A DNA stretch of 44,263 bases, taken from positions 1 to 44,263 of IMG/VR virus record IMGVR_UViG_3300020215_000021; one strand, 5' to 3'. Below the pieces are notes generated by a model that saw nothing but the letters and a program-made list of their open reading frames with translations, made no database searches and was not told the DNA's origin. This document shows positions 22,657 through 26,669 of the stretch, piece after piece; within the stretch, counting starts at the first letter, position 1; every line of letters starts with the position of its first letter. A program made the translations under genes and the position numbers. The stretch comes from a virus.

Positions 22657-23340
22657 TCACGGGATGGGGTCGTGCGGGATCGCCTGGCGCCCGGCCAGCA
22701 GCTCCATCCCGCGGCGGATACGGTCCTTGGCGGAGAGCTCGGGAGCATCGTCGTCCTTGGCCTTCGGGACGATCTTCACCGGCTCGACACTGGCGAGGAT
22801 GGCGCGGGCGCGGGCAAACTCGGCCGCCGCCCTCTCCGGGTCCACGGGCGGCTCTGCCTTGGGCGCTTCCTTGGGCAGTTTGCGCAGCGCCAGGCGGGCC
22901 CGGGTGAGCTCGCGGTTGCGCCGCTCGAACTCCTCCGCCACGGGCTCCCGCACCTCGGCGGGGGTCGGCATCCGCATACCCCATTTCCACGTCGTGCGGG
23001 CGTGGTGCACGGCCTCGACAAGCAGGTCTTCCGGCAGGTTGCGCAGCCCGTCCACGTAGGCGTCGGTCGCCGCCTGTACGTCGGGGACGGGGATGTTGAA
23101 GGCGCGAGAGAAGGCCATGAGCTCGGCCACCAGCACCGCCACGGTTTCAGGCGCCGACGCCCGCACCGATGCCGCCAGGGCGTGACCGGCCTGGACGAGC
23201 TCACCCCGGCTGACGCCGTCCGGCAGCCCCTCCCAGATTTCCCATCCGTCCAGTGACCGAGGCAAGGACGGCGGCGTTGTGCTCGTCGCGAGTGCCGGCA
23301 CGGTTGCCGCTGCCGCGGGGACGCGCTGGATACTGGACAT
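22657..23340 (-). CDS. Hypothetical protein (227 aa), replication-module neighbour
   Basis: ORF track. Wobble GC is about 80% in its first 60 codons, higher than the overlapping tail of the upstream gene. Confidence 0.6.
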   Translation of the reverse strand: MSSIQRVPAAAATVPALATSTTPPSLPRSLDGWEIWEGLPDGVSRGELVQAGHALAASVRASAPETVAVLVAELMAFSRAFNIPVPDVQAATDAYVDGLRNLPEDLLVEAVHHARTTWKWGMRMPTPAEVREPVAEEFERRNRELTRARLALRKLPKEAPKAEPPVDPERAAAEFARARAILASVEPVKIVPKAKDDDAPELSAKDRIRRGMELLAGRQAIPHDPIP

Positions 23341-24025
23341 TGGCGGGCTCCGGAATGGCGATGGGGGCGGTGCGGTCGGAGAAGGCGCGCGTGATCGCGT
23401 CGGTGAAGTAGCTGAGGCTGCCAGGCGGCCCCTGGGCCTTCCGGTTGCGGCCGTCCATCAGCCGGCGCACGGTCGGGATGATGTCGAGCTCGGGATCGCA
23501 GCCGGCATTCAGCCAGGCTTGGACAAGGCCGTAGTTGCCGGCCCACCGGGGGTCGTCGTGGGAAACCCCGAGCTCGTTCAGCACGGCCCTGCCCACGTCC
23601 CGCAGGCTCGCGCGCCCAACAACAGCGTCTGGTTCTATGACGGTTACTAACGGTTCGGGCGAACCAGCTTCACCCTTTGGCGAACGACGTTCACCCTTAC
23701 GCGAACCAGCTTCACCCTTAGAGGCTGCCTCCTCCGTAGGGCGAACGTCCTTCGCCCTTTCCAAGTCGATGCGGTACTCGGTCGTGGCGCCCCGCCCGCC
23801 GCCGCCGGCCCGCACCACGACCAGCACGCCCATGCCCACAAGGTCCTTGAGGGCGAGCTGCACGGCCCGGTCGCTGAGCTCGGCATCGGCTGCCAGGGTC
23901 GCCACGGCCGGGAAGATGCGGGCGCCGTTCTCGTCCGCGTGCTCAGCCAGCAGCAGCAGGACGAGCTTCCGCGTGGAAGACCCGACCCGGGCTGAGCGGC
24001 AGATTTCGACGGCGCGGATGCTCAT
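23201..24025 (-). CDS. Replication initiator-like winged-helix protein
   Basis: The ATG at 24025 overlaps the upstream stop (ATGA). The N-terminus is wHTH-like (STRKLVLLLLAEHADENGARIFPAVATLAADAELSDRAVQLALKDLVGMGVL). The gene contains four iterons. The last 140 nt overlap the next gene. Confidence 0.6.
   Translation of the reverse strand: MSIRAVEICRSARVGSSTRKLVLLLLAEHADENGARIFPAVATLAADAELSDRAVQLALKDLVGMGVLVVVRAGGGGRGATTEYRIDLERAKDVRPTEEAASKGEAGSRKGERRSPKGEAGSPEPLVTVIEPDAVVGRASLRDVGRAVLNELGVSHDDPRWAGNYGLVQAWLNAGCDPELDIIPTVRRLMDGRNRKAQGPPGSLSYFTDAITRAFSDRTAPIAIPEPANVQYPARPRGSGNRAGTRDEHNAAVLASVTGRMGNLGGAAGRRQPG
23659..23759. repeat. Four 19-bp iterons inside the initiator gene (candidate origin of replication)
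   Basis: GCGAACCAGCTTCACCCTT at 23659 and 23701, GCGAACGACGTTCACCCTT at 23680, GCGAACGTCCTTCGCCCTT at 23741. Spacing is 21, 21 and 40 bp. Confidence 0.6.
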
Positions 24026-24372
24026 GCGCCGCCACCGTTGATGTCGCCGAACTCGCCACTCTCGATAAGCCTCTTGGCGGCGGCGCAGAACTCCATCACG
24101 GACTGATGCGCTTCCTCCGGCGTCAGGTCGAACCACTCCCCGGCCAAGCGGCACGCCTTGTGCTGCTCGTGCAGGTACTGCTCAAGCCCCGCCGCCATGG
24201 GGCGATCGATCATCGGGAAGTGCCAATAGAGGGCCAGCGGACGTGGGTTGCCCGTCTGCAAAGTGGCGAGCCGGGATTTCGGGTCGTTCGCGATGCCGAT
24301 CTTCACCGGGCCGGTAAATGCCGGCACCAGAGCGTCGACGTGACAGATGATGTAGAGGCTGACAGCCGTCAT
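24022..24372 (-). CDS. T5orf172 / MUG113 (GIY-YIG superfamily-like) domain protein
   Basis: 116 aa. LYIICH...GPVKIGIANDPKSRLATLQTGNPRPL...LEQYLHEQHKACRLAGEWFDL matches my memory of the T5orf172 pattern. Confidence 0.6.
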   Translation of the reverse strand: MTAVSLYIICHVDALVPAFTGPVKIGIANDPKSRLATLQTGNPRPLALYWHFPMIDRPMAAGLEQYLHEQHKACRLAGEWFDLTPEEAHQSVMEFCAAAKRLIESGEFGDINGGGA

Positions 24373-24433
24373 GCTTCGCTCCGGCAGTACAGGAGGTGTT
24401 CCAGGGCGATGTCCTGGGGGGAGTGGGTGGGGG

Positions 24434-25369
24434 TCATGCTGCCAACCTCCCCTCAGCAGAGAGGATGGCGCGGCCGATCAGCTCCGGGATTTGCGGGACG
24501 ACCGCGTTGCCGAGGGCCCGCAGTCGGTCCACCCGAGCGGGAACCCCATGAGCCACTCGACCCACGTCGGGTTCAGAGGACCAGGCTTGTCCGAGACGAC
24601 CATGGACAAGTTCATCTGCTGCCCACGCTCCAATCGGCGCTGGATGGCCGGCATGCCGAGATGCCCGCGCGTGCGCGTGTCGCTGGCCTGCGGCGTCGGC
24701 CACAGTGACCGCCATACCGCCGTCGCCAGACCGTCGCCGCTGTTGGGGCTTGCGCCCTTCCTGTTGTAGTTGCCGCTCACCGTTGGGGTGGGCCAGAGCT
24801 TCACGGCGAGGGCTAACGGCATCCCGCCTTGCGCATACAGCTTGCTCCGATCCGTGGCACTGTCCGTAGTTGGGGTGGGCCACAATCCAGATGCGGTCCC
24901 GCTGGTGAGGGGCGCCAACGGCGGAAGCTGGAATGCAGTGCCACTCCGCGTCATACCCGAGCGCGGCCAGGTCTCCGAGAACCTTGCCCAGCCCTCGACC
25001 AAGCAGCGCTGCGACGTTCTCCACGACGACGTAGCGGGGTCGAAGCTCGCCAGTGAGACGGGCGATGTCCCGCCATAGGCCGCTGCGCTCCCCCTCAATT
25101 CCTTCGCCAGCACCAGCCTGGCTGATGTCCTGGCACGGGAACCCGCCGCAGATGACATCGACGGCAATTCCATCGGCAGCAAGCCGGGCAGCGTCGAGGG
25201 TCCGCACGTCGTCATAGCAGGGCACCTCCGGCCAATGCTTCGCCAGCACACGCCGGCAGAAGGCGTCGATTTCGCAGAAGGCGACGGTCTTGAACCCGCC
25301 GGTGCGCTCCAACCCCAGGCTGAAGCCGCCGATGCCGCTGAATAGGTCGAGGACGCGGAAGGGCTCCAT
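24434..25369 (-). CDS. DNA (cytosine-5) methyltransferase; the central part appears to be encoded in the +1 frame
   Basis: Frame A carries FSGIGG (motif I), GFPCQD (IV), ENV (VI), QRDRIWIVA (VIII) and LGNAVVPQ (X). Residues ~166-270 of frame A are low-information with low wobble GC (see finding). Confidence 0.8.
   Translation of the reverse strand: MEPFRVLDLFSGIGGFSLGLERTGGFKTVAFCEIDAFCRRVLAKHWPEVPCYDDVRTLDAARLAADGIAVDVICGGFPCQDISQAGAGEGIEGERSGLWRDIARLTGELRPRYVVVENVAALLGRGLGKVLGDLAALGYDAEWHCIPASAVGAPHQRDRIWIVAHPNYGQCHGSEQAVCARRDAVSPRREALAHPNGERQLQQEGRKPQQRRRSGDGGMAVTVADAAGQRHAHARASRHAGHPAPIGAWAADELVHGRLGQAWSSEPDVGRVAHGVPARVDRLRALGNAVVPQIPELIGRAILSAEGRLAA
24478..24885 (-). other. Alternative (+1) frame segment that carries the codon bias and a methyltransferase variable-region-like sequence
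   Basis: Part of ORF-track entry 24478..25251. It has three LWPTP[TQ] repeats, AIQRRLERGQQMNLSMV and LNPTWVEWLMGFPLGWTD. Wobble GC is about 82-93% by hand count. Confidence 0.5.
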
Positions 25370-25371
25370 CG

Positions 25372-25587
25372 CTACGCCCCCTCCCCTGCCTTCAGCTCGA
25401 CACCCAGGTACTTGCACCAGGCCAGCAGGTTGGGGACGGCAGGCCAGCACTCCCCGCTCTCCCACTTGCCGACAGCGGAGGGGCTGAAGCCGAGAGCCTT
25501 CGATAGTGCTGCTATCGACAGGCCCCTTTGCTCCCGGGCCCGGATGAGGGCGCGGACGATGGCGGTCCAGGTGGCGAAGGTGTTCAT
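25372..25587 (-). CDS. XRE-family helix-turn-helix regulator (71 aa)
   Basis: HTH: LSIAALSKALGFSPSAVGKWESGE. Its stop lies 2 nt before the methyltransferase start. Confidence 0.75.
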   Translation of the reverse strand: MNTFATWTAIVRALIRAREQRGLSIAALSKALGFSPSAVGKWESGECWPAVPNLLAWCKYLGVELKAGEGA

Positions 25588-25703
25588 GCCACCCTCCGAT
25601 AAAAGGCGGCCACCCCATCCCCGGCATGGAAGAACCGCACCGCCGCTTGGACGGAAGGGGAGCCGGGGATGTGGGCTTGGTACGGGGCCGCTAGGTTCGT
25701 CAT
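25584..25703 (-). CDS. Possible small ORF (39 aa), coupled at both ends
   Basis: Hand translation: MTNLAAPYQAHIPGSPSVQAAVRFFHAGDGVAAFYRRVA. It has ATGA overlaps with both neighbours. Confidence 0.4.
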   Translation of the reverse strand: MTNLAAPYQAHIPGSPSVQAAVRFFHAGDGVAAFYRRVA

Positions 25704-26272
25704 GCCGCCACCTCGGAGGCCGGCGGGTACAGGCCCAGGCCCTCGCACTGGGCGATCCAGCGCCGGGCCATCTTCGTGGCGCTACGCTCCATGTTCGGCC
25801 ACTCGGGATGCTCGCTGATGGCGGGGGCGATCATCTCCAGCCCCTTGGCGGCAGGGCTGCCCTCGTACACCTCCAGCCGGCCCGAGGCGGCGAGGTCGGC
25901 CAGCATCAGCCACCCGGCCCCGGCGACGTAGACGGAGCTGCGGCCGGGCTTGTCGTCGCGGGCATAGCAGTCGGCCAGGAGGTGGGACTTCACCTGTCCC
26001 TGGAGGACGTAGCCCTCGTTGCGCTTGAAGATGCGCCGGCGGCCCTCAAGGACCACCACGGGCACCGCCTCCCACGCCTGGTGGATCGAGGCGGCGAACA
26101 GCTCCGCCACCTCCTCGCACCAATCCCCGTGCCCCTCGGCGGTCAGCGGGCCGATGGCCTGGAGAACAGCCTCATGGATGATCCGGGCAGGCATGGTCAG
26201 GCCGATGATGGTGCGGGCCCAGCCGGAACGCTGGAGGGCGGTGCGGAGCTGGCGTTCGGCGCGGGTGAGCAT
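25700..26272 (-). CDS. Hypothetical protein (190 aa)
   Basis: The ATG at 26272 lies 1 nt after the upstream stop. The ORF-track extension to 26416 is Pro/Ala/Arg-rich. Confidence 0.6.
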   Translation of the reverse strand: MLTRAERQLRTALQRSGWARTIIGLTMPARIIHEAVLQAIGPLTAEGHGDWCEEVAELFAASIHQAWEAVPVVVLEGRRRIFKRNEGYVLQGQVKSHLLADCYARDDKPGRSSVYVAGAGWLMLADLAASGRLEVYEGSPAAKGLEMIAPAISEHPEWPNMERSATKMARRWIAQCEGLGLYPPASEVAA

Positions 26273-26273
26273 C

Positions 26274-26669
26274 TCAGCGGCCCTCCACCCAGCGCCGGGC
26301 GCCGCAGGTGGGACGCGAGCACTGGCGGGCCTTCGTCGGCGTGGTGTAGCCGCCGCAGGGGGCGCACTGGACGCGGGCGGCCGGGCTGTACTCGGGCTTG
26401 GCGGCCACGGGGGCAACCGGCGGCGTCGGCTTGGATGCCAGGGGATCGACGACGCGCACGATGCGACCGCGCCCGGACTTGATGATCTCGATTTCCTGGC
26501 AGTCCATCAGCCGGGCGAAGAGGTTGGAGATCGTGCTTCCCGAGCGCGGGATGCGCAGCGCCTGACCGATGACATCATTGGTCGGCAGCAGCTCGCCGCT
26601 GGCCTCATAGCCCCGCAGCAGATCCATGAAGTTCGCCACCTCATCGGGCTTCATTGGCCATCCGCCCAT
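26274..26669 (-). CDS. Hypothetical DNA-binding-like protein with a C-terminal Cys cluster (131 aa)
   Basis: The ATG at 26669 lies 2 nt after the upstream stop. C-terminal motif: CAPCGG...CSRPTCG. Confidence 0.55.
   Translation of the reverse strand: MGGWPMKPDEVANFMDLLRGYEASGELLPTNDVIGQALRIPRSGSTISNLFARLMDCQEIEIIKSGRGRIVRVVDPLASKPTPPVAPVAAKPEYSPAARVQCAPCGGYTTPTKARQCSRPTCGARRWVEGR

Follow-up and report, generated by a model that had tools for sequence, protein, structure and literature searches.

Canonical DNA (cytosine-5) methyltransferases read DNA with a small domain made up of the target-recognition region and motif IX. In M.AquI-type systems two ORFs overlap and the split falls within the variable region. 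Enzymes of this type were described as C5-methyltransferases of two polypeptides (PMC3404938). A nested arrangement was reported for M.EcoHK31I, the alpha/beta C5-methyltransferase of E. coli HK31 (YGGCCR), in which the alpha gene contains, in a different frame, the coding sequence of the beta chain (PMC2836561). The alpha chain of this enzyme carries motifs I-VIII and X, the beta chain carries motif IX, and both are required (PMC2836561; PMC3404938). Activity was lost when the Met codons of the beta frame were removed and was restored by a separate beta gene (PMC2836561). Moreover, several in-frame Met residues near the beta N-terminus can be used as starts, and the first tens of residues of beta are dispensable, the next ones being needed for association (PMC2836561; PMC3404938).

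In our study we analyzed a viral locus in the window, i.e. the whole stretch of 44,263 nucleotides of record IMGVR_UViG_3300020215_000021. The product of this locus is very probably a DNA (cytosine-5) methyltransferase of two polypeptides, encoded by two overlapping genes on the same strand, since a conserved +1 gene nested in the alpha gene makes an enzyme of two proteins the most likely reading. Its nested layout is like that of M.EcoHK31I, a likeness of architecture drawn from the published description, and the motif split is also the same, with motifs I-VIII and X in alpha and motif IX in beta. However, the predicted recognition domain of M.EcoHK31I has been placed in alpha, whereas the recognition-type repeats of our locus are found in beta. 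The "variable region" of its alpha looks like an unconstrained linker, unlike the recognition domain assigned to the M.EcoHK31I alpha chain. The genetic context may differ as well: the name M.EcoHK31I comes from the EcoHK31I restriction-modification system, and the gene in the window belongs to a phage replication module with small HTH genes and a MUG113/T5orf172-domain gene as neighbours. None of the three flanking ORFs that were checked resembles a restriction endonuclease.

The M.AquI-type layout was found exactly in gp32/gp33 of Streptomyces phage Lilbooboo, where the second ORF lies in the +1 frame. Unlike in this type, alpha of the window reads through past motif VIII to motif X, and therefore beta is nested in alpha and not downstream of it. 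The single-chain enzyme gp71 of Mycobacterium phage WillSterrel (391 aa) has the same N-terminal domain and LLPTP/LWPTP repeats as our locus and shares the signatures of motif IX (LNPxFxEWMMGxPxGW) and motif X (GNxVVPQ). In gp71 a single frame holds all parts and GW is separated from IGN by 15 residues; in the window, the DNA coding for the end of motif IX and that coding for the pre-motif-X stretch overlap in two frames. Compared with single-chain relatives like gp71, the layout counts as frame-shifted solely on a deep evolutionary scale. For Escherichia phage K1ind3, GenBank lists a 265-aa ORF29 ("Mte8-like protein") inside the 309-aa ORF30 ("C-specific methylase") in the +1 frame. ORF29 contains WPTP repeats, like beta of the window, and carries LNPAHSRWLMGYPPEW. 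ORF30 is of another alpha subfamily (PPCQPFS type), and the annotation gives neither a function for ORF29 nor a link to the methylase; a literature search on "Mte8" found no source for the name.

Motifs and domains of the two reading frames

The first-pass annotation, made from the sequence alone, had described a long ORF in frame A with five methyltransferase motifs. The ORF is present on the minus strand and all five motifs were located in it:

24434..25369, minus strand: alpha gene (frame A, 311 aa plus stop), from the ORF list
25380..25384, minus strand: GGAGG, Shine-Dalgarno-like, 10 nt upstream of the alpha ATG (25369), read from the sequence
25325-25342, minus strand: motif I, FSGIGG, frame A
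25130-25144, minus strand: motif IV, GFPCQ, frame A
25013-25021, minus strand: motif VI, ENV, frame A
24878-24904, minus strand: motif VIII, QRDRIWIVA, frame A
24491-24514, minus strand: motif X, LGNAVVPQ, frame A
24875..25369, minus strand: alpha residues 1-165, large-domain part for catalysis and AdoMet binding, with motifs I, IV, VI and VIII, from Pfam and PDB matches
24527..24874, minus strand: alpha residues 166-281, linker and "shadow" of beta, from third-position GC (0.58) and phase entropy
24434..24526, minus strand: alpha residues 282-311 plus stop, with RLRALGNAVVPQIPELIGRAIL, the pre-motif-X stretch, motif X and the C-terminal helix, from a single-frame entropy pattern

The order in alpha is thus motifs I-VIII, a long unconstrained linker and motif X. 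In the alignment to PF00145 proposed by the first-pass annotation, frame A was matched at residues 4-167 only (profile positions 1-163, E 9e-43), and the same residues matched residues 12-173 of M.HhaI among the PDB sequences. The N-terminal motifs of the PF00145 type, I (FxGxG), IV (PCQ), VI (ENV) and VIII (QxRxR), are present in alpha. Motif IX was not found in alpha, the Pfam match ending at residue 167. The linker is poorly conserved with many indels in the homolog alignment, and EPDVGRVAHGVPARVD within it is what the DNA of beta motif IX spells in the other frame. Motif X (GNxVxxP) follows this variable region on the same chain as motifs I-VIII. It lies in LGNAVVPQIPELIGRAIL (alpha residues 286-303), which is conserved with ordinary codon-phase variation, and the equivalent segment of the relative L074 aligns to motif X of M.HhaI (FGNSVVINVLQYIAYNI).

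An ORF at 24478..25251 in the +1 frame with three LWPTP[TQ] repeats had likewise been pointed out, and both the ORF and the repeats were recovered:

24478..25215, minus strand: beta gene (245 aa plus stop), +1 frame, counted from the open frame's first ATG; nested wholly inside the alpha ORF (24434..25369), on the same strand
25225..25229, minus strand: GGAGG, Shine-Dalgarno-like, 9 nt upstream of the beta ATG (25215-25213), formed from alpha codons P47-E48-V49
25156..25173, minus strand: additional in-frame beta ATGs, MELPS (25173-25171) and MSSAAG (25158-25156), formed from alpha codons D66 and D71
24862-24885, minus strand: LWPTPTTD, +1 frame
24775-24798, minus strand: LWPTPTVS, +1 frame
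24682-24705, minus strand: LWPTPQAS, +1 frame
24598-24648, minus strand: AIQRRLERGQQMNLSMV, +1 frame
24523-24576, minus strand: LNPTWVEWLMGFPLGWTD, +1 frame, C5-methyltransferase motif IX of beta, by homology via L074
24523..24981, minus strand: conserved core of beta (residues 79-231), from FSETWPRSGM through the three LWPTP repeats to motif IX, corresponding to the target-recognition region

No family was found in Pfam and NCBIfam searches with beta. Among its homologs (n=3209), the best 120 all have no Pfam domain on record, and beta matches phrog_1008, "DNA methyltransferase" (E 1.5e-33). With hhalign the beta profile was aligned to residues 196-358 of WillSterrel gp71 (97.9%, E 3.7e-13), and judged by this profile comparison the beta core is homologous to the part of a single-chain enzyme that comprises the target-recognition region and motif IX. 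In L074, LNPDWVEWLMGYPISWTD is near-identical to motif IX of beta and in frame with motif X. The PF00145 match of L074 spans the profile (2-322 of 324) and includes LNPDWVEWLMGYPISWTD, and the region aligns without gaps to M.HhaI 270-318, LHPRECARVMGYPDSY...FGNSVV. The beta alignment profile gave no match against PDB sequences even at E values up to 10. An AlphaFold2 model of beta alone, built from a 60-sequence alignment, was of moderate confidence (mean pLDDT 62.7, pTM 0.33), and a Foldseek search with this model found no match in the PDB; the modelling was uninformative.

Distribution of the layout and selection on both frames

Of 80 viral loci at least 56 have the two-frame layout, as do 71 of 80 loci in bacterial genomes; these loci come from many phyla, with a GC content of 0.42-0.73 and a protein identity of ~40-65%. 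Cultured phages with the nested layout include Che9d (gp80), Microcystis phage Mwe-JY08 and Escherichia phage K1ind3. Three layouts can be distinguished. In one, alpha ends after motif VIII and beta holds the recognition region with motifs IX and X, as in Lilbooboo gp32/33; an alpha ending in the variable region with motifs IX and X in beta, which is the M.AquI-type feature, was seen in 2 of 80 genome loci. In the window type alpha has motifs I-VIII together with X; beta has the recognition region and motif IX. In the remaining one, represented by L074 and L077, motif IX has returned to the frame of alpha. Alpha and beta jointly carry every motif in all three layouts, whereas a frameshift product would not. 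Two candidates for stand-alone beta-like proteins, P0122 and P0125, were rejected, the contig of P0122 showing nesting in a methyltransferase gene.

The first-pass annotation had reported that the codon-bias signal jumps to the +1 frame in the variable region. This core observation is real, as the protein-like signal moves to the +1 frame between alpha residues 166 and 281. Third-position GC of frame A is 0.58 over residues 166-270, where 57% had been counted by hand, compared to 0.78 over residues 1-165 and 0.80 over residues 282-311. Over the DNA of residues 166-270 the +1 frame reaches 0.83 (82% by hand). For the last 30 codons of the +1 frame the 93% given was slightly too high, our recomputed values being 0.83-0.90 depending on the stretch counted. 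The highest third-position GC values among the long ORFs of the window are 0.83-0.97. Two sites had been proposed as switch points, TGGCCCACCCCAAC at 24869-24882 and GGGCCC at 24514-24519. Both indeed lie near a change of the constrained frame (alpha residues ~160-166 and 281-283), but they did not hold up as sites of a shift.

In the window alone the open frames are not significant, with a probability of finding no stops of 0.18 for the N-terminal region in the +1 frame and 0.06 for the middle of frame A. When synonymous codons were permuted across 49 related loci, kinship between loci being ignored, 5 stops were seen in the +1 frame over alpha motifs IV-VIII versus 95.3 expected, and none in the alpha frame over the middle region versus 118.5 expected. 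The control frames showed 195 stops versus 182.8 expected over motifs IV-VIII and 280 versus 259.6 over the middle region. Restricted to the 19 loci with a GC content <0.53, the middle region of the alpha frame again had no stops (57.2 expected), and the +1 frame was open even in loci at 42-47% GC. Depletion of +1 stops was absent over alpha residues 7-59 (112 seen, ~85 expected) and strong from residue 70 onward (5 seen, ~135 expected). It sets in sharply at alpha residues 60-70, just where the +1 ATGs cluster. Selection keeps both frames in place.

Codon-phase variability revealed which residues each frame holds. Amino-acid constraint in alpha, recognized as an ordinary coding pattern by third-position variability, covers residues 7-165 and 282-305. 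Across residues 1-165 third positions are near saturation with positions 1 and 2 conserved, the wobble positions of residues 135-166 being under extra constraint, and residues 282-311 show a single-frame pattern with a third-position entropy of 1.5-1.9 bits. Residues 166-281 have no amino-acid constraint of their own, yet the frame is kept open. In beta, residues 1 to ~78 are unconstrained, which parallels the dispensable first residues of M.EcoHK31I beta, and constraint begins at FSETWPRSGM; from SGLWPTP to GWTD positions 1 and 2 are conserved and the third-position entropy is 1.3-1.9 bits. Where beta is conserved, the first positions of alpha codons are free and the second and third are fixed. 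For alpha residues 263-281, third positions are nearly fixed (0.24-0.9 bits) and first positions variable (up to 1.75 bits), which is the pattern expected if beta and not alpha is selected there.

Two chains or a shifted frame

A separate overlapping gene in the +1 frame, one of the interpretations offered initially, is supported by our data, as both frames are selected and M.EcoHK31I provides a precedent (PMC2836561). In such an enzyme alpha (311 aa) would supply the large domain, with motifs I-VIII at the N-terminus and motif X at the C-terminus, and the ~115 alpha residues between motifs VIII and X would need only to stay free of stops. Beta (~226-245 aa) would be initiated inside alpha, with candidate ATGs at 25215 (behind GGAGG), 25173 and 25158, and would supply what alpha lacks, namely the target-recognition region with its LWPTP repeats and motif IX. 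The two chains would be expected to associate into one active enzyme, as in M.EcoHK31I. Independent initiation of beta, formation of a heterodimer and its specificity are thus predicted, and activity of the alpha/beta pair is likewise assumed by analogy. A start of its own for beta is suggested by features of the sequence, i.e. the ATG cluster, the GGAGG and the stop-free zone beginning at the ATG cluster. GGAGGTGCCCTGCTATG at 25229..25213 runs from the GGAGG through the beta ATG, and the GGAGG may function in ribosome binding. The first +1 ATG shares the position of the window's beta start in 24 of 51 loci and often follows a run rich in purines; conservation of the putative ribosome-binding site is not strong, and the start position differs between loci. 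Within the constrained parts of alpha, Asp is encoded by 10 GAC versus 2 GAT codons, and both GAT codons (D66, D71) create +1 ATGs. Across loci, codons ending in T are over-represented at sites 52, 66 and 71 (60/98 versus 102/228, p = 0.008, kinship of the loci being ignored).

Recoding by +1 and -1 frameshifts had also been considered. A +1 shift after motif VIII and a -1 shift after GWTD would yield one canonical-looking chain with motifs I-VIII, the recognition region, motif IX and motif X, a domain order that exists in single-chain relatives (WillSterrel gp71), and the boundaries of constraint are close to both junctions. Nevertheless, we consider programmed recoding quite unlikely because both frames are kept open beyond the junctions: the alpha middle (0 stops versus ~118 expected) and the ~100 codons of the upstream +1 frame (5 versus ~95) have been purged of stops, although neither would be needed if frames were switched. 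The fused product would also have ~5 residues between motifs IX and X compared to 12 in M.HhaI and L074. GFPLGWTD of beta and VPARVDRL of alpha are encoded by one stretch of DNA, and a fusion could keep only one of the two. The Pfam match was not extended past residue 167 on the hypothetical A/+1/A chimera. An AlphaFold2 model of this chimera, made without an alignment, had a pLDDT of 36.6 and was too poor to be of use. Besides, the layouts of L074 and Lilbooboo would require different sets of shifts, and the first junction has no stop codon and, by eye, no obvious slippery motif; its DNA is conserved, but as coding sequence of the beta WPTP. A single +1 frameshift, giving a fusion of the N-terminal part of alpha to beta beside full-length alpha and leaving beta without initiation of its own, would produce a complete enzyme in Lilbooboo-type relatives. 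In the window type such a fusion misses motif X, and the stop-free zone of the +1 frame starts ~100 codons before the junction, at the ATG cluster. Since removal of the beta Met codons of M.EcoHK31I kills activity and a separate beta gene rescues it (PMC2836561), this variant is very unlikely as well.

The locus could also be read as a complete enzyme in frame A with an odd Arg/Gly/Gln-rich variable region, the +1 signal being a decaying relic. Gene callers and PHROGs treat frame A in this way (alpha residues 2-307 match phrog_363), and its thousands of homologs (~65% identity) cover 97-100% of its length. We regard this as highly improbable, given a middle region free of amino-acid constraint of its own, an alpha without motif IX and a +1 frame under clear purifying selection that is open even in loci of low GC content, where a relic would have gained stops. 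Compensating indels, whether from assembly errors or a recent scrambling of the enzyme, were the third interpretation proposed at the outset. The NCBI pipeline does call an E. coli prophage copy two partial pseudogene fragments, but both frames are intact in that copy. Such prophage copies were found with a K1ind3-type query against E. coli genomes, in which blastn with a relative of 51% GC gave no match. Well over 100 independent loci, cultured phages included, share the layout, and both frames are selected; this recurrence refutes sequencing or assembly indels and recent inactivation, whose probability is practically negligible.

Annotation and wider significance

The nested methyltransferase layout has been described once before, for M.EcoHK31I, and is found here across many phages and bacteria, where it is usually mis-annotated. 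In our literature search no description of a family-wide nested gene was found; two papers on alphaproteobacterial phage methyltransferases proved unrelated, dealing with enzymes of ~700 aa or with m4C. Most phage records annotate alpha only, in actinophage records the locus is split into two "DNA methylase" genes, and Pfam and NCBIfam have no beta model. Standard pipelines overlook beta or call the locus broken. Whether nested alpha/beta is an old and very widespread architecture of phage and prophage C5-methyltransferases, with the DNA-reading module in a rarely annotated +1 gene and the alpha variable region as a mere open linker, is to our mind evenly balanced. If so, specificity predictions and pseudogene calls would be systematically wrong for these enzymes. 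If the recognition region lies in beta, matching methylome motifs to genes via the annotated protein would fail, and cloning of alpha alone would give inactive or relaxed enzymes. The pair would also be among the longest well-supported same-strand overlapping genes in prokaryotes and, with ~740 nt nested at 42% to 73% GC in many phyla, an unusually clean case of overlap. A functional rationale would be that the two halves of an enzyme are kept in fixed genetic linkage, which would make the pair useful for studies of dual-coding evolution.

Regarding its origin, the layout may go back to a recombination between the +1 "shadow" of motif VIII, (S)GLWPTP, and an LWPTP repeat that lay in frame in a single-chain ancestor. 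Two exact copies of TGGCCCACCCCAAC are still present in the window, 87 nt apart.

Reading frames at the methyltransferase locus

The methyltransferase gene, alpha, its nested +1-frame ORF and their neighbours are arranged as follows.

Features at the methyltransferase locus
24434..25369, minus: alpha (frame A ORF), 311 aa; start MEPFRVLDLFSGIGG, end LGNAVVPQIPELIGRAILSAEGRLAA
24478..25251, minus: +1-frame ORF of the mechanical ORF list, wholly inside alpha; called beta from its first ATG
25375-25587, minus: HTH_3 protein, its stop codon 2 nt upstream of the alpha ATG
24025-24372, minus: neighbouring MUG113/T5orf172-domain protein (Pfam)
23204-24040, minus: neighbouring HTH_36 protein (Pfam)

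The first-pass annotation had described the nested +1 ORF and a codon-bias signal that switches between the frames, and both were confirmed in the ORFs, the wobble GC and the places of the motifs. Frame A wobble GC drops from 0.78 (residues 1-165) to 0.58 (166-270) and is 0.80 at residues 282-311. Over residues 166-270 the +1 frame reaches 0.83, and the long window ORFs with the highest third-position GC lie at 0.83-0.97. Three LWPTP repeats, AIQRRLERGQQMNLSMV and LNPTWVEWLMGFPLGWTD are read in the +1 frame where they had been reported. Long Arg/Pro/Gly/Ala-rich ORFs are also found on the opposite strand and in other frames nearby, e.g. 25412-26482 (+) and 24106-24708 (+); these look like a side effect of the 67% GC, and ORF length by itself therefore proves no coding in the window. 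Small genes for phage replication or regulation surround alpha (23204-24372 and 25375-25587, minus). Since none of the three flanking ORFs checked with Pfam resembles a restriction endonuclease, the enzyme looks, on this limited evidence, like an orphan phage methyltransferase.

Matches of alpha to Pfam PF00145 and M.HhaI are confined to residues 4-167, which hold motifs I-VIII. All of the at least 8000 scored candidate homologs of frame A were significant, the best with ~65% identity over 97-100% of the query. In an alignment of 18 homologs, residues 1-165 and W..EPDVGRVAHGVP.RVDRL.ALGNAVVPQIPELIGRAIL are strongly kept. The middle region, for which the first-pass annotation had proposed such alignments, lies outside the PF00145 match and shows many gaps and weak conservation. 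Its few kept residues (LA[NDHY]A[ND], VADA) are exactly the alternate-frame reading of WPTP, and where frame A varies between N, D, H and Y (all NAC codons) the changed base is the third position of a Pro codon in the +1 frame. Because the homologs show this WPTP shadow, the two-frame property belongs to the whole family and not to this contig. The +1 peptide has 3209 homologous proteins, and among the best 120 of these (85-258 aa) none has a Pfam domain on record. In PHROGs it matches phrog_1008 'DNA methyltransferase' (E 1.5e-33), and alpha matches phrog_363. One beta-like match (P0122) was rejected as a stand-alone protein; on its contig it is nested in another methyltransferase gene.

Selection on both frames and candidate beta starts

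Synonymous codons were permuted within each of 49 loci while the protein of one frame was held fixed. With alpha fixed, five +1 stops were seen against 95.3 expected between residue ~67 and the end of motif VIII, and the +2 control frame held 195 against 182.8 over the same region. With the +1 protein fixed, alpha-frame stops were absent from motif VIII to GWT (118.5 expected; third-frame control 280 against 259.6), as they were in the 19 loci with GC <0.53 (57.2 expected). Along alpha, +1 stops showed no depletion over residues 7-59 (112 seen, ~85 expected) and fell to 5 against ~135 from residue 70 on; these counts ignore kinship of the loci, and control frames with equal kinship behave as expected.

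The boundary of stop depletion is also the place of recurrent +1 ATGs. Counted back from the PCQ proline, their distance is 25-27 codons in 24 of 51 loci, and most of the remaining loci have them at 7-18 codons. The first beta ATG of the window (25215) has GGAGG 9 nt upstream and is made by the TAT of Tyr52, TAT being two of the three Tyr codons in the constrained parts of alpha. The next two beta ATGs are made by the sole two GAT Asp codons in these parts (10 GAC, 2 GAT). Across loci, T-ending codons are commoner at the three ATG-making sites (60/98 vs 102/228, p = 0.008, phylogeny ignored).

Column entropies on codon alignments gave the following map.

Constraint by frame (alpha residues unless stated)
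7-64: alpha constraint only; third positions saturated (1.7-2.0 bits), positions 1 and 2 conserved
69 to ~134: same pattern as 7-64; beta frame open
~135-166 (LGYDAEWHCIPAS...RDRIWIVA): dual constraint; several alpha wobbles fall to 0.5-0.75 bits
SGLWPTP to GWTD (beta): normal coding pattern in beta (third positions 1.3-1.9 bits); alpha first positions vary freely
263-281 (W..EPDVGRVAHGVPARVD): third positions nearly fixed (0.24-0.9 bits), first up to 1.75 bits
R282/L283 onward: ordinary alpha pattern resumes; third positions 1.5-1.9 bits

The alpha-only pattern at 69 to ~134 means that the first 60-80 residues of beta are merely a shadow of alpha. In the zone of dual constraint the beta partner is SETWPRSGMxxNG...SGLWPTP, and the 'conserved alpha motif' W..EPDVGRVAHGVPARVD is itself a shadow of beta LNPTWVEWLMGFPLGWTD.

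A probable two-chain enzyme and its alternatives

In the M.HhaI structure the target-recognition region and motif IX form the small DNA-reading domain, and motifs I-VIII and X the large one. At the homologous locus L074, the alpha frame reads LNPDWVEWLMGYPISWTD with LGNSVVP 12 residues further on; its Pfam match spans the profile (positions 2-322 of 324), and the segment aligns gap-free to M.HhaI 270-318 (LHPRECARVMGYPDSY...FGNSVV), that is, to motifs IX and X. Motifs I-VIII, LLPTP repeats, LNPAFPEWMMGWPTGWVT and IGNGVVPQQ all stand in a single chain in a relative, Mycobacterium phage WillSterrel gp71, and the beta profile matches its residues 196-358 (97.9% probability, E 3.7e-13). Based on these alignments, the beta core is the target-recognition region plus motif IX. 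As the middle region of alpha is without amino-acid constraint, recognition is placed in beta in the window family.

A comparable arrangement was described for M.EcoHK31I, in which alpha holds motifs I-VIII and X, beta holds motif IX, and association is required for activity (PMC2836561, PMC3404938). There, translation can start at any of the beta-frame Met codons 1, 17 and 26; beta can do without its first tens of residues, and those that follow govern association (PMC2836561, PMC3404938). Going by description, the window matches this layout point for point, which makes it quite probable that its nested genes encode the two chains of one enzyme. Beta would be initiated independently within alpha, and the chains would associate into an active enzyme with a target sequence. 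However, for M.EcoHK31I the literature locates the predicted recognition domain in alpha, whereas it would lie in beta in the window family. Structure prediction gave no added support for the two-chain reading.

The first-pass annotation had also offered compensating indels or assembly errors, recoding and a separate overlapping gene. Assembly error or recent scrambling is excluded by the recurrence of the layout across viral and genome loci. Recoding, by which +1 and -1 frameshifts would yield one doubly shifted chain, is unlikely in view of motif overlap, motif spacing and the layouts among relatives. In the window, the end of motif IX (GFPLGWTD) and the stretch leading up to motif X (VPARVDRL; compare gp71 SRNDQLRI) are encoded by overlapping DNA in different frames, so that such a chain would lose one or the other, and its motifs IX and X would be only ~5 residues apart rather than 12-15. 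In layout 1, which resembles M.AquI, alpha ends after motif VIII, leaving the recognition region and motifs IX and X to the +1 ORF. This is seen in Streptomyces phage Lilbooboo (L082, 1254-2310; motif IX LSPEFAEWLMGLEPGWVT, motif X IGNGVVPHQ), where genes 32 and 33 are both annotated as 'DNA methylase'. Layout 2 is the window type. In layout 3 (L074 1492-2547, L077 1492-2520; GC 0.44) the alpha frame reads LNPDWVEWLMGYPISWTD...LGNSVVP and the LLPTP repeats are still in +1; here the switch back to alpha precedes motif IX instead of following it. A frameshift product would hold the full motif set in layout 1 only, but alpha and beta together hold it in all three, which strengthens the two-chain conclusion. 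The separate overlapping gene is supported by the purging of stops from both frames, by beta having a family of its own and by the M.EcoHK31I precedent.

Two methylase genes are also listed under the match in many mycobacteriophage and Paenibacillus phage records. In the window, TGGCCCACCCCAAC occurs twice, exactly, 87 nt apart (24782-24795 and 24869-24882, minus; 0.05 expected by chance). One copy falls within the DNA of alpha motif VIII (IWIVAHPN; beta LWPTPT) and the other within that of the second LWPTP repeat, so that the +1 shadow of motif VIII resembles a recognition-region repeat. The +1 junction could stem from unequal recombination between such copies in a single-chain ancestor.

Spread of the nested layout

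The nested two-chain methyltransferase is a kind already known but obscure, and what is new is its very wide spread. Loci were scored as nested when a motif-IX-like W[LM]MG[FY]P lies in +1 relative to PCQ and the PCQ frame continues to GNAVVPQ. This pattern search found at least 56 of 80 fetched viral loci (GC 0.42-0.68), and all 13 pattern-negative loci open to inspection were nested by eye. The layout persists at 42-47% GC, a range in which stops abound in the third frame. When species-representative genomes were scanned, >591 stretches matched, and 71 of the best 80 are nested (GC 0.44-0.73). They come from Alpha-, Beta- and Gammaproteobacteria, Actinomycetota, Verrucomicrobiota, Planctomycetota, Chloroflexota, Acidobacteriota and Patescibacteria as well as Leptospira, Paenibacillus and one archaeal MAG. 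Among cultured phages it is found in Mycobacterium phage Che9d gp80, Microcystis phage Mwe-JY08 and Escherichia phage K1ind3. For K1ind3, GenBank lists the nested +1 ORF as 'putative Mte8-like protein' (265 aa, 1240-2037) within a 309-aa 'C-specific methylase' (1152-2081) of a different alpha subfamily (PPCQPFS); no source of the name Mte8 was found in the literature searched.

The nested kind is routinely mis-annotated. In an E. coli ECCTRSRTH03 prophage (1363-2532), NCBI annotates two fragments, each as a partial 'DNA cytosine methyltransferase' pseudogene. There the alpha frame is intact as far as GYGNAI (about 390 aa), and so is the nested +1 frame with GWPTPT repeats and LNPAHSRWLMGLPHAW.

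A second alpha subfamily (L088, L096, L099, L146, L160 and other genome loci) has the N-terminus ...LFAGAGGG... and motif X IGNGQVP. Beta is nested likewise and ends GWPIGWTDLKPLEMDKFQEW, and nesting thus spans more than one alpha lineage. In an alphaproteobacterial MAG (L089) the alpha frame reads ...RVDRLKGLPTWVEWLMGYPLGWTALKG beside a normal nested beta, as if a local duplication or rearrangement had fused the alpha stretch before motif X to a copy of motif IX.
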